Shown: positions 38,400 to 54,345 of the stretch, piece after piece
Layout: every line of letters begins with the position of its first letter
How positions within the stretch are numbered: position 1 is the stretch's first letter
NCBI GenBank assembly: GCA_051888935.1
Contig: JBJFCL010000023.1
Coordinates: 1 to 54,345 of the forward strand
Origin: Candidatus Caccovivens sp.
GTDB lineage: Bacteria > Bacillota > Clostridia > Christensenellales > UBA1242
Reading direction: 5' to 3'
DNA length: 54,345 bases
Notes under the pieces: generated by a model
Seen by the model: only the letters and a program-made list of their open reading frames with translations
What the model was told of the DNA's origin: nothing
The model's database searches: none
Program-made: the position numbers and the translations under genes

Positions 38400-39336
38400 T
38401 GTGTTAAGTTTATGCGTTTTGGTTAAAAGAAATATATTGTTGTTTTTGAAAGACAAAATGACAGTGTTTTTCTCATTACTCGCACCTATTATTGTTTTGA
38501 TGCTTTATATTTTGTTTCTTGGGGATATTCAGTCAGACACAATAAACAGCATTATTGATAGTTACAATTTGGAGATAGAACAAAAATTTGTGTTAGCGTT
38601 CATAAACAACTGGATGGTCTCTGGTGTGATGGGAGTGTCTTGTATTACTGTGGCTTTCAGTGCTTGCACTGTTATGGTTAGAGACAGAGAAAGAGGGACA
38701 GTTAATGATGTTCTTTCTTCACCAGTAAAGAGATGGGTTGTTTTTGCAAGTTATGTGCTTTCATGTTTTCTCATCACTTTGATTATTTGCCTTTTGGTGT
38801 TTGTGGTCTCAATAATTTATCTTGTTTGCACTGGCGGATTTTTTATGAGTTTCGTTGAATTATTGGCAATAATCGGAATAACCATATTGTCAATTGTGTC
38901 TTCATCGGTTATTGCTGTGTTTGTTTCAAGTTTCATTAGAACGGAAGCAGCACTGGGTGCTTGCTCTGGGATTTTGAGTGCTATAATTGGATTTATAACA
39001 GGTGCGTATATGCCATTGAGTATGTTTCCAGAGTCCATACAATTTTTTGTTTGCTTCATTCCTGGCAGTTATTCAGCGGGATTATTTAGAAATTATTTCT
39101 TGAAAGGACCAACGAAAATTTTACTTGAAAAATTGCCTGCTGATTTAGTGCAACAACTTGTGGAATCTTATTCGGTGGAAATGAAATTCTTTGGAGGAAG
39201 CACCATAACTGCTGGTTGGATGACTTTGGCGTTGGTTTTGTCAGTCATTATTTTTGTTGGAGCGCTTGCAATATTCTATTCAAAGAAAAAATCTAATATT
39301 TTTTTGCAAAGACACAAAAAGAAGAAAACAGCGTAA
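38386..39336 (+). CDS. ABC-2 transporter permease
   Basis: Six TM segments, VFFSLLAP, DRERG, GFITGAYMP; overlaps the ATPase gene. Confidence 0.9.
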   Translation: MKKNNVLSLCVLVKRNILLFLKDKMTVFFSLLAPIIVLMLYILFLGDIQSDTINSIIDSYNLEIEQKFVLAFINNWMVSGVMGVSCITVAFSACTVMVRDRERGTVNDVLSSPVKRWVVFASYVLSCFLITLIICLLVFVVSIIYLVCTGGFFMSFVELLAIIGITILSIVSSSVIAVFVSSFIRTEAALGACSGILSAIIGFITGAYMPLSMFPESIQFFVCFIPGSYSAGLFRNYFLKGPTKILLEKLPADLVQQLVESYSVEMKFFGGSTITAGWMTLALVLSVIIFVGALAIFYSKKKSNIFLQRHKKKKTA

Positions 39337-39345
39337 ATTTATATG

Positions 39346-39372
39346 AAAACTCCGAAAAAATGGAGTTTTTTT
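39346..39372 (+). terminator. Rho-independent terminator
   Basis: aaaactcc-gaaaaaat-ggagttttttt. Confidence 0.75.
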
Positions 39373-39391
39373 ATTTTATTGATAAAAAATC

Positions 39392-39420
39392 TTTACTTTT
39401 TTAAAAATATTTGCTATAAT
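39392..39420 (+). promoter_or_regulatory. SigA-type promoter for the tRNA-Arg locus
   Basis: TTTACT-N17-TATAAT with extended TG. Confidence 0.6.
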
Positions 39421-39479
39421 TTGAGGGCAAGAAAAATGAATCTTGTTATTGCAAAAACAGAAAATTAAATATATCATAT

Positions 39480-39591
39480 GCACCCATAGCTCAACTGGAT
39501 AACAAATTTTTGCAAATTTGTTGCGACCGCGTCGAACCATCGCAAACTCTTGCAAGCAAAGTTTGCTCCTCTTCTCCTAGTCTTAGAGCGT
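39480..39591 (+). pseudogene. Partial tRNA-Arg (5' 22 nt plus TAGAGCGT) interrupted in the D-loop by an 82-bp insert
   Basis: GCACCCATAGCTCAACTGGATA-[39502-39583]-TAGAGCGT, then the sequence diverges. Confidence 0.8.
39502..39583. mobile_element. Short palindromic REP/MITE-like insert, copy 1
   Basis: Flanked by TA...TA; nearly identical to 39756-39841 apart from the first hairpin; several hairpins. Confidence 0.5.
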
Positions 39592-39643
39592 AAACGCGAT
39601 AAACTTCACTGCTTGCAAGAACTAAAAAATAAATATATCTTAT

Positions 39644-39720
39644 GCACCCATAGCTCAACTGGATAGAGCGTTCGTCTACGGAACGAAAGGTTGGGGATTC
39701 GAGCTCCTCTGGGTGCACCA
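39644..39720 (+). tRNA. tRNA-Arg(ACG)
   Basis: 77-nt cloverleaf GCACCCA...TGGGTGC-A-CCA; anticodon arm TTCGT-CTACGGA-ACGAA. Confidence 0.97.
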
Positions 39721-39743
39721 AAAAAGATTTTGCCAGTTTCGCT

Positions 39744-39898
39744 CTCAACTGGATAACAAAAAATGAGAGCATTTTTTGTTGCGACTGCGTCGAACCATCG
39801 CAAACACTTGCAAGCAAAGTTTGCTCCTCTTCTCCTTGTCTTAGAGCGTTCGTCTACGGAACGAAAGGTTGGGGATTCGAGCTCCTCTGGGTGCACCA
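39744..39898 (+). pseudogene. Partial tRNA-Arg (lacks the 5' acceptor strand) interrupted in the D-loop by an 86-bp insert; 3' part identical to the intact gene including CCA
   Basis: CTCAACTGGATA-[39756-39841]-TAGAGCGTTCGTCTACGG...GGGTGCACCA. Confidence 0.82.
39756..39841. mobile_element. Short palindromic REP/MITE-like insert, copy 2
   Basis: Same insertion point and TA flanks as copy 1. Confidence 0.5.
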
Positions 39899-39904
39899 AA
39901 AACA

Positions 39905-39930
39905 TCGGACTAAATTTTGTCCGATTTTTT
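39905..39930 (+). terminator. Terminator after the tRNA-Arg array
   Basis: atcggac-taaatttt-gtccgat followed by a T-run. Confidence 0.8.
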
Positions 39931-39946
39931 ATTTTATTCAAAAAAA

Positions 39947-39978
39947 TTGTTGACATATCAACAAAAATATGATATTGT
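39947..39978 (+). promoter_or_regulatory. Promoter with a palindromic putative MarR operator
   Basis: TTGTTGA-cata-TCAACAA overlaps TTGACA (39950-39955); TG-n-TATTGT -10 at 17-bp spacing. Confidence 0.65.
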
Positions 39979-39995
39979 TGCAAAGGAGGCTTAAA

Positions 39996-40460
39996 TTGGA
40001 AAATAGATTTGGAGTGTTTACTCAATTGATAAACAACATAAGTAGAAATATTTATAAACTCAAATTCTCCAACATGGAAGAAATAGGGCTAAGAAGCACT
40101 CATGTTTCTTGTTTATATTATCTTTTAAAAAAAAGAGAATTGACACTGAAAGAACTTTGTGAAAAATGCGATGAAAACAAAGCGGCAATATCAAGAACAG
40201 TTGATGATTTGACACAATTGGGATATGTTGAAAAGAAAAATGTCTCTTGCAAATATAAAGTACCACTTGTTCTAACAGAAAAAGGAGAACAGGTCGGAGA
40301 CTATATTGAACAGAGAATAGACGAACTTGTGGAGAGAGCAAGTTTCGGACTTTGTGAAACTGACAGAGTAAAGTTGTATGATAGTTTGAGACTGATTAAC
40401 AATAATTTACAAAAAATAGTTGATAAGGAGAAAGAAAATGGCTGTAAAAATAATCATTGA
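39996..40460 (+). CDS. MarR family transcriptional regulator
   Basis: AAGGAGG RBS then TTG start; LTLKELCEKCDENKAAISRTVDDLTQLGYVEK...LVLTEKG winged HTH. Confidence 0.9.
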   Translation: MENRFGVFTQLINNISRNIYKLKFSNMEEIGLRSTHVSCLYYLLKKRELTLKELCEKCDENKAAISRTVDDLTQLGYVEKKNVSCKYKVPLVLTEKGEQVGDYIEQRIDELVERASFGLCETDRVKLYDSLRLINNNLQKIVDKEKENGCKNNH

Positions 40461-48659: not shown

Positions 48660-48736
48660 TGGTGGTGATAGGTGGGCTCGAACCACCGACCTTATGGGTA
48701 TGAACCATACGCTCTAGCCAGCTGAGCTACATCACC
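48660..48736 (-). tRNA. tRNA-Met(CAT), elongator type
   Basis: GGTGATGTAGCTCAGCTGGCTAGAGCGTATGGTTCATACCCATAAGGTCGGTGGTTCGAGCCCACCTATCACCACCA; G1-C72 paired, no run of three G-C pairs in the anticodon stem. Confidence 0.93.
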
Positions 48737-54290: not shown

Positions 54291-54345
54291 GGAAGTTTAG
54301 CTCAGCTGGGAGAGCATCTGCCTTACAAGCAGAGGGTCATAGGTT
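54291..54345 (+). tRNA. tRNA-Val(TAC), truncated by the window end
   Basis: GGAAGTTTAGCTCAGCTGGGAGAGCATCTGCCTTACAAGCAGAGGGTCATAGGTT... Confidence 0.93.

Follow-up and report, generated by a model that had tools for sequence, protein, structure and literature searches.

The nearest published kind to the element reported here is the superfamily of CGTC-tagged repetitive extragenic palindromic sequences (REPs), which Di Nocera, De Gregorio and Rocco (2013; PMC3733652) describe as small palindromes with a unit of 20-40 bp and no dedicated transposase. An unpaired CGTC (or TGTC or CCTC) stands there at the 5' end of a continuous 8-9-bp stem that starts with A-T, the loop measures 4-5 nt and the tail reads about CCA; these REPs occur in tens to hundreds of copies, mostly as head-to-head dimers, and lie mostly downstream of genes and sometimes inside DNA-metabolism genes, with no mention of Firmicutes or Clostridia in that paper (PMC3733652). 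We describe here an uncatalogued family of small structured repeats in a genus of ~1-Mb uncultured gut Clostridia, represented in a 54,345-nt contig of Candidatus Caccovivens sp. (contig JBJFCL010000023.1 of GenBank assembly GCA_051888935.1, forward strand; this whole stretch is called the window) by two inserts in the D-loops of partial tRNA-Arg gene copies.

Compared with these REPs, our element shares the CGTC/TGTC tag, a 4-nt loop, a short pyrimidine-rich tail, a location mostly downstream of genes and at times inside DNA-metabolism genes, and the lack of a dedicated transposase. It differs in its length (50-64 nt, or 82-86 nt with an additional hairpin, P1), in its stem, which consists of a 3-bp helix B, an internal loop and a further 3-9 bp, all enclosed by a helix A, and in its tail, which reads UCCUY and then pairs within helix A. 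It also differs in copy number (1-6 per genome) and in forming head-to-tail arrays, head-to-head dimers not having been seen, and that source reports no REPs nested in tRNA D-loops together with partial copies of the gene. In contrast to REP/REPIN systems with their REP-associated tyrosine transposases (RAYTs), the element does not flank Y1 (RAYT) genes, nor does its occurrence follow theirs.

MITE-like repeats (miniature inverted-repeat transposable elements and their kin, such as Correia, RUP, ERIC and RPE) are short, structured, noncoding, dispersed and co-transcribed with their neighbours, RPE even inside genes. Our element is likewise short, structured, noncoding and dispersed; unlike them it has neither terminal inverted repeats nor a constant target-site duplication, so the MITE-like character suggested in the initial annotation of this locus is not borne out, and it strongly prefers one tRNA loop, with a partial duplicate of the target always alongside.

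Partial tRNA genes are also known as scars of integrating elements (PMC9897764). As in such attachment-site (att) remnants, direct repeats of a tRNA segment bracket our element, and relatives carry anticodon-loop fragments at the same tRNA-Arg. In contrast to them, the break lies in the D-loop, the "island" measures 82-86 nt and lacks an integrase, duplication affects 5' and 3' parts equally often, and the element sits within the fragment, not between fragment and gene.

Other precedents involve tRNA pieces without integration. The distal repeats of the E. coli tyrT operon and the rtT RNA carry a tRNA 3' end and are released from the same precursor; in our locus, too, repeats with tRNA pieces lie inside a tRNA operon between predicted promoter and terminator, but they hold a D-loop insert rather than a tRNA 3' end, a distinction made by description. 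Archaeal D-loop introns and split tRNA genes have an intervening sequence at a non-canonical position, or 5' and 3' pieces that lie apart, and our locus likewise combines an intervening sequence with separate 5' and 3' pieces; it differs in belonging to a bacterium, in having no bulge-helix-bulge motif and no complementary leaders, in its incomplete pieces and in the presence of a normal gene. Group I and group II tRNA introns are set apart by the lack of any ribozyme-core match and by the truncated exons, and guide RNAs of the IS200/IS605 type by the lack of a TnpB match in the element's own genome. In the open-access literature, supplements aside, we came across no report of truncated bacterial tRNA copies with structured D-loop inserts.

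The tRNA-Arg array in the window

The window is contig C23 of a 1.1-Mb, 97% complete assembly (G000; other G numbers denote relatives). At the centre of the array lies an intact tRNA-Arg(ACG) gene (39644-39720, plus strand, as are all features of the array; ARAGORN, with an Rfam tRNA score of 60.6 bits), the only full tRNA-Arg(ACG) gene in the assembly. It is preceded by a leader (39612-39643; from letters, alignment and a repeat search), and it starts 164 nt after the start of a first partial copy. The leader of that copy (ttgcaa..taaatatatcatat, 39449-39479) repeats the leader of the intact gene over ~30 nt and scores weakly as a promoter (TTGCAA-17-TATCAT); an exact 25-nt repeat, tatgcacccatagctcaactggata, adjoins the insert of the copy. 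The partial copy itself, which we call type 1 (39480-39501, GCACCCATAGCTCAACTGGATA), reproduces tRNA-Arg positions 1-22 at 100% identity to the intact gene and thus holds the acceptor 5' strand, the D-stem 5' strand and the D-loop up to GGATA.

Insert 1 (82 nt, 39502-39583) follows, between GGATA and TAGAGCG. It begins with the P1 hairpin (ACAAATTT-TTGC-AAATTTGT, 39502-39521), assigned from its sequence and from covariation in the family, and continues as a rod (39522-39585; likewise covarying, and matched at 75.4 bits by R2, a rod-only covariance model) with helix A as GAC/GTC, an internal loop CGCGTC/TCCTA, helix B as GAA/TTC and a third helix, P3, with a GCAAGC tip. TAGAGCG (39584-39590) is a remnant of tRNA positions 21-26 with the D-stem 3' strand, and together with a hairpin GCG-TAAA-CGC it closes the type-1 copy (39584-39597), at the place where relatives have GAGCG-nnn-CGCTC.

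The second partial copy (type 3) begins 12 nt past the intact gene with a hairpin, CCAGTT-TCGCTCTC-AACTGG, followed by ATA (39733-39755), so that the D-arm 5' half is present and the acceptor 5' strand absent; its tRNA piece CTCAACTGGATA (39744-39755) directly precedes insert 2 (86 nt, 39756-39841). This insert again consists of a P1 hairpin (ACAAAAAAT-GAGAGC-ATTTTTTGT, 39756-39779; sequence and family covariation) and a rod (39780-39843, R2 match of 80 bits), and by alignment it has a core in common with insert 1 and a different first hairpin. Positions 21-77 of the tRNA follow at 100% identity to the intact gene (39842-39898), comprising the D-stem 3' strand, the anticodon arm, the T arm, the acceptor 3' strand and CCA. 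We also observed that GCTCTCA (39741-39747), upstream of the D-loop of this copy, is complementary to TGAGAGC (39766-39772) in its P1 loop.

A promoter-like site with a TG extension (TTTACT-17-TATAAT, 39392-39420; 10 of 12 matches in a consensus scan) upstream of the whole array and a terminator-like hairpin with a T run (39904-39925), which closes the unit, frame ~500 nt that hold both partial copies and the intact gene, and relatives share this layout, with a strong promoter ~50-60 nt ahead of the first tRNA-like piece.

Much of the initial annotation stands at the level of anatomy: letters, coordinates and alignment agree with a tRNA-Arg flanked by two partial copies split in the D-loop, with inserts of 82 and 86 bp that have the quoted core in common, and with a leader of ~30 nt before copy 1 and a 164-nt period. 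The proposed TA duplication is present at both junctions in the window and absent in many relatives, so that it is no feature of the family. The polycistronic precursor that it envisaged is plausible from the sequence, the array lying within one predicted promoter-to-terminator unit.

The same annotation raised the splicing or trans-joining of the halves, and an intron-like or split-tRNA system whose fragments are joined into a second tRNA-Arg would indeed match a copy 1 that is the 5' part and a copy 3 that is the 3' part, with one split point; deletion between the inserts would give a full tRNA with a single D-loop insert. Both kinds of partial copy surround one tRNA gene in G000 and G123 only, however, among 32 sources (31 genomes and one metagenome contig), the other genomes having one kind alone, and in G141 the two kinds belong to different genes, type 1 to tRNA-Arg(ACG) and type 3 to tRNA-Arg(UCG). 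The inserts are alike rather than complementary, and so could not pair as the leaders of archaeal split tRNAs do; Rfam holds no group I, group II or other ribozyme match, the exons are truncated, the intact gene is always present, and the same element occurs at sites that are not tRNA genes. We regard joining as very improbable and the split-tRNA or intron-like explanation as close to excluded.

The most improbable explanation of those we weighed is an assembly artefact or a one-off local duplication. In its favour, tRNA repeats often break short-read assemblies, and the contigs of two relatives (G019, G004) end inside the locus; a variant insert in G004 runs off its contig end, and no overlapping contig was found. 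Against it, independent assemblies of dozens of genomes, as well as one metagenome contig, show this architecture, and a 151-nt contig from a public sequencing run spans 39507-39651 and links insert 1 to the tRNA start, a weak argument in that the run may be the source sample. Contigs from four sequencing runs were mostly tRNA-only pieces of other organisms, and the insert of copy 3 was uncovered. The recurring architecture, in which an essential single-copy gene stays intact beside truncated, element-bearing copies of itself, misleads tRNA annotation and breaks assemblies.

Extent, targets and fold of the repeat family

A BLAST search with the inserts against their own genome gave no match beyond the array. 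A search with the junction pattern, by contrast with a reversed control that gave none, found the same arrangement in 7 of 154 genus genomes; the letters of P1 differ in each of these genomes and are self-complementary every time. With R1, a covariance model of the whole unit (E≤0.1), 45 of 151 genus genomes were matched, and with R2 (E≤0.01) 51 of 151, at 1-6 copies per genome, many R2-positive genomes carrying 2-6 copies of a 51-nt short form. Among 146 other genomes of the order, R1 gave two weak matches, and R2 matched two, in two other families, with the helix covariation kept. Since R1 and R2 recur at these rates and further rods lie on contig C1 of the same genome, we treat the element as a repeat family and not as a local oddity. 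The earlier suspicion of a structured noncoding repeat-family element without its own transposase is thus supported by the covariance models and the genus-wide matches, and the insert recurs in related genomes, also at tRNA-Arg(UCG) (G141, G007). These results add a well-supported, uncatalogued structured element to the repeat and noncoding RNA inventory of uncultured small-genome gut Clostridia, and the covariance model can annotate it in about a third of the genus.

In a placement census of 42 R1 matches, 27 preceded an intact, same-strand tRNA-Arg(ACG) by at most 400 nt (24 sources, some as tandem pairs) and 7 lay just downstream of it. One lay downstream of tRNA-Arg(UCG) in G141, with a 3' part that copies the UCG tRNA and not the ACG tRNA, one after tRNA-Val, and two in the gyrB-gyrA spacer; the remaining four were a type-1 copy in G019 whose tRNA is truncated where the contig ends, an upstream copy in G123, decayed and overlapping the start of the tRNA, and decayed type-3 copies in G140 and G129. 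Most long copies therefore follow ...GGATA in the D-loop of a truncated tRNA-Arg and adjoin an intact gene, G007 having the type-1 layout at tRNA-Arg(UCG), and all tRNA-linked copies (37/37) are co-oriented with the tRNA. The preservation of an intact gene beside the element, noted earlier for this locus, is constant. Targeting of tRNA genes applies to most long copies, in tRNA-Arg D-loops, and not to the core, which also occurs at gyrB, at 5S rRNA, after tRNA-Glu and tRNA-Val, and in arrays.

At the 3' end of gyrB (identified by Pfam) the element lies antisense to gyrB-gyrA in three species (G140, G143, G077), and its orientation is thus independent of host transcription. Dispersed rods were also found after tRNA-Glu, tRNA-Val, tRNA-Arg(UCG) and an open reading frame (ORF) end judged by eye to be that of rpsU; 7 of 19 dispersed rod loci include a tRNA gene. 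The extra rods of the window's own genome lie after tRNA-Glu(CUC) (C1:63550-63600) and after 5S rRNA (C1:655-705), with a decayed third rod at about C1:861 beside the latter. The tRNA-Glu(CUC) rod is preceded by an inverted copy of the T-arm of that tRNA, and ~130 nt past it stand a copy of the last 12 nt of the tRNA and a terminator; G147 has the same layout at tRNA-Glu(UUC), its inverted piece matching its own T-arm.

Head-to-tail arrays occur in G096, G107, G020, G007 and G154, with tandem periods of 60-113 nt. G007 and G119 carry a multi-copy unit of ~150 nt (an extra hairpin, P1 and the rod), near-identical at different loci. This composite repeat contains an inverted repeat, TTTTCATGA..TCATGAAAA, a P1-like hairpin, the rod and a tail, and in G007 a further ~200 nt are common to its loci. 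At the orthologous ABC-2/tRNA-Arg locus, G036 retains a decayed type-3 stub, in which the hairpin GCTCTCA..TGAGAGC alone remains after the tRNA, and G139 has a clean site. In G140 (C6, L152 1501-2183), a 109-aa ORF with a weak DUF4406 match, below cut-off, is enclosed by two type-3 copies, the second of them decayed, an arrangement that resembles a small cassette with the element on either side.

Outside genome assemblies of the genus, the junction pattern gave no match in viral contigs and one in metagenome contigs (L148, a relative of G102). In a scan of genome contigs the pattern was too loose, returning at least 119 stretches; hairpin and tRNA context were found in three of those listed, all known genus members, so that the scan is uninformative on other taxa. 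A BLAST search with the type-3 copy against phage and plasmid collections returned 8 and 2 records, respectively, matching the tRNA part only (query positions 109-159).

The fold consists of the variable hairpin P1 and the rod, in which two short helices surround conserved CGUC/UCCU loops and the tip reads GCAAGC; the rod core measures ~50-64 nt and the long form with P1 82-86 nt. Helix A is GAC/GTC, with variants AAC/GTT, GCC/GGC, GTC/GAC and GAT/ATC; the internal loop has YNCGUC on its 5' side and UCCUY on its 3' side; helix B is GAA/TTC, with variants GAG/CTC, AAG/CTT, AAA/TTT, AGA/TCT, TGG/CCA, GCG/CGC and GTA/TAC; beyond it come a second loop and P3 with the tip ..UGCAAGCA... The long form is closed by the D-stem and stand-alone copies by another covarying stem. 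A local hairpin CGAC/GTCG, paired in 91% of cases and nearly invariant, is a possible alternative conformer to helix A.

Across 46 distinct sequences, aligned with a model from which helices A and B were absent, 92.0% of cells were paired, compared with 70.8% after shuffling and 39-48% for slid partners, and 23 of 25 pairs showed compensatory changes, values that none of 500 shuffles reached. P1 was 97% paired in the same set, with compensatory changes in 6 of 7 pairs, and 55 distinct rods gave 95.1% against 77.8% shuffled, with 13 of 14 pairs compensatory. Of the 46 distinct rows, 30 have CGTC and 3 have TGTC at the end of the 5' loop of the rod, followed by a stem-loop with a 4-nt loop (CAAG), and in alignment A6 CGTC, TGTC or CGGC stands directly before helix B.

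Such covariation raises the possibility that the element is a functional structured noncoding RNA family (a protein-binding RNA, a small RNA or a ribozyme of unknown kind), expressed by riding tRNA and rRNA operons. The partial tRNA pieces would then contribute a promoter, a leader, the D-stem as a closing helix and sites for processing: type 1 would receive its 3' end when RNase P cuts at the downstream tRNA, and type 3 would be freed as the upstream tRNA is processed at its 3' end. Besides the strength of the covariation, this explanation draws support from the conserved CGUC/UCCU internal loops and GCAAGC tip, the UUCG-type loops of some P1 hairpins (C(UUCG)G tetraloops), the placement of all 37 tRNA-linked copies on the tRNA strand between predicted promoter and terminator, the covarying closing stems or own terminators of stand-alone copies, and the occurrence of members, with helix covariation, in two further families of the order. 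A requirement for a closing helix would also explain why exactly the D-stem halves are retained. In contrast, G-U cells are no commoner than A-C cells in the helices (29 versus 28 and 13 versus 17 in two alignments), which gives no sign of selection on the RNA strand and is as expected for a palindrome at the DNA level. The gyrB copies are antisense to the only obvious transcription, copies decay at orthologous loci (G036, the second type-3 copy t3b of G140, and t3 of G129), and about two thirds of the genus lack the element; an RNA role also leaves the palindromic junctions, the duplicated flanks and the tandem arrays unexplained. Above gathering scores, Rfam 15 matched only tRNA, and at E≤10 the matches within 39300-40000 were at chance level (MicC, CRISPR-DR63, leaders). 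We consider a functional RNA possible, though doubtful on balance. As an RNA, the element would represent a new conserved fold, and the sharp conservation of its internal loop would make a specific partner probable.

Flanking duplications and candidate movers

Exact direct repeats of at least 12 nt between the two 220-nt flanks were found at 33 of 47 element sites, compared with 3 of 115 shifted control windows. At tRNA-Arg sites these repeats mostly measure 25-96 nt, with 13-24 nt at several sites and none found at three; many dispersed short rods have none. The repeat adjoins the element at the tRNA-Arg and gyrB sites, and lies 42 nt and 183 nt away at the 5S rRNA site. At gyrB the last ~50 nt are present twice, copy one completing the gene and copy two being split by the element 5-10 nt from its start; at the 5S rRNA, a 37-nt stretch (the 5S 3' end and the first half of the terminator) is repeated beyond the insertion.

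The junctions themselves are palindromic. The truncated side of type 1 ends in GAGCG-nnn-CGCTC, which in some species extends to the reverse complement of the whole D-arm, and that of type 3 in CCAGYTGAG-CG-CTCARCTGG, perfect in G142 and G022; across 9 genomes, the letters of CCAGYT/ARCTGG covary with that of the D-loop. At the junctions, many relatives read ...GGATA|TCACC...GTCTAAT|GAGCG, and the insert ends (ACAA... and ...GTCTTA) are not inverted repeats.

Direct repeats of the target that bracket the element, as attL and attR do, would also be expected of relics or miniature cassettes of site-specific integration, comparable to cis-mobilizable elements (CIMEs), with the rod as a putative recombinase-binding palindrome. 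Small units with their own copy of the target end would have been integrated or amplified by tyrosine or large serine recombinases encoded elsewhere or, alternatively, by Campbell-type homologous recombination of excised circles, the displaced gene end being left as a dead shell. The same tRNA-Arg is a classical integration hot spot in relatives: in G030, G016 and L148 the tRNA-Arg(ACG) locus carries insert-free 5' fragments cut at the anticodon loop, and in G129 a 1.7-kb segment lies between tRNA-Arg and a 3' half, such insert-free fragments being signs of classical integration at this gene. In G030, a possible integrase ORF downstream of tRNA-Arg was read by eye. The 109-aa ORF between the two type-3 copies of G140, an outermost shell in G003 whose acceptor sequence differs from the resident tRNA, and the 51-nt imperfect palindrome without wobble bias, which has the size and symmetry of a recombinase site, point the same way.

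The element's own genome could supply the enzymes, with three tyrosine recombinase genes (one broken) and eight Resolvase-domain matches, six of them large serine recombinases of ~500-560 aa, a number high for a 1.1-Mb genome that suggests several integrated elements. These genes lie on contigs C33, C20, C30, C19, C6 and C26, however, none on C23 and none on rod-bearing contigs, and none of the elements examined has a recombinase gene inside or beside it. The bracketed DNA spans 82-250 nt and has no ORF; it lies next to ABC transporter, MarR and DegV genes; a single conserved rod occurs at many targets, whereas att sites are target-specific, and it lies inside the D-loop of a partial copy and not between complete att halves. 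Work by Williams in 2002 is said to place tRNA integration sites in the anticodon loop, the T-loop and the 3' end, not in the D-loop. We judge integration relics unlikely, though less so than tRNA joining.

The initial annotation further proposed a link to RAYT/Y1 transposases, which fails: Y1_Tnp occurs in 17 of 154 genus genomes, 5 of which carry the element, about the background rate, and R1 and R2 gave nothing significant at 10 Y1 loci of the genus. Its statement that the window has no integrase or transposase holds for the families searched, not every window ORF having been annotated. The own genome gave no match to Y1_Tnp (PF01797), TnpB (PF07282), RVT_1, IS110 or rve, IscB not having been searched separately.

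The explanation that we favour, with about an even chance of being right, is that the element is a DNA repeat, REP-like and non-autonomous, which survives where its targets exist as spare partial copies. Its landing sites would be the tRNA-Arg D-loop, after ...GGATA, and a few further gene ends, the genes being essential or highly expressed, and it would persist only where the target is a spare truncated duplicate beside an intact gene, the partial duplicates thus allowing its survival. The retained D-stem halves next to the insert would close the element, gene conversion or recent duplication may account for the identity between the tRNA-derived flanks and the working gene, and the whole array would be carried passively in the predicted tRNA-Arg transcript. 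The element presumably moves, or moved, as DNA, through a mover that would act in trans or be a host recombination or replication process.

We favour DNA over RNA because of the unrelated targets, the flank repeats, the arrays, the near-identical units at several loci and the decay at orthologous sites, and equally because of the missing wobble bias, the antisense orientation at gyrB, the palindromic junctions and the patchy distribution. The unpaired CGTC/TGTC 5' of a stem with a 4-nt loop echoes the CGTC-tagged REPs and is counted for the REP-like interpretation. If the element is DNA, the REP concept widens to Firmicutes and to targets inside stable-RNA genes.

Several points weigh against a REP-like DNA repeat. 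The profile searches of the own genome named above found no mobilising enzyme, Y1_Tnp does not track the element in the genus and Y1 loci lack rods, and the copy number of 1-6 per genome is unlike that of classical REPs. Polymorphism between filled and empty sites was not seen within any one species, so that mobility is itself a deduction, and the fold is conserved with many compensatory changes between species in which the neighbouring gene is only ~65-71% identical. This absence of polymorphism and deep conservation, together with the co-orientation of all 37 tRNA-linked copies with the tRNA inside the predicted transcription unit and the own terminators of some stand-alone copies, fit a selected RNA at least as well, and the C(UUCG)G loops of some P1 hairpins add to this side. 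The origin of the partial duplications is left unexplained by the REP-like interpretation.

The recurrence of one arrangement poses a mechanistic question, in that a transposase-less element has repeatedly come to occupy a single nucleotide position in the tRNA-Arg D-loop, and the final codons of gyrB, and in every case a duplication restores the gene. We entertain, more tentatively than the functional RNA, the idea that the family is one lineage of an unrecognised class that, lacking a dedicated transposase, homes to a loop of an essential stable-RNA gene (in this case the tRNA-Arg D-loop, at ...GGATA|G) and accompanies or provokes a partial duplication by which the gene is regenerated. Such an element would amount to a mini-cassette of a "gene-end-replacing" type or to an insertion by hairpin-driven template switching, with the CGUC/UCCU-GCAAGC rod as the recognition module for a trans-acting host or phage enzyme.

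Discarded candidates and neighbouring features

Further candidates were tried and rejected. Coding on the reverse strand, suggested by a purine-rich tract resembling a ribosome-binding site, was dropped since the small frames differ in frame and length between copies and species (judged by eye). A guide RNA with the tRNA flank as guide and the insert as scaffold does not fit a genome without TnpB, nor a flank that lies on either side of the same scaffold. The motifs of hammerhead or hairpin ribozymes and of integron attC sites, compared by eye, did not fit, and Rfam gave them no support.

The genes around the array encode an ABC transporter, a MarR protein, a DegV protein and a symporter, and the terminator of the upstream ABC-transporter operon lies at 39345-39370. 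Elsewhere in the window, a tRNA-Met gene lies on the minus strand at 48660-48736, and a further tRNA gene is cut by the window end at 54291-54345 (Rfam 39 bits, 5' part only).

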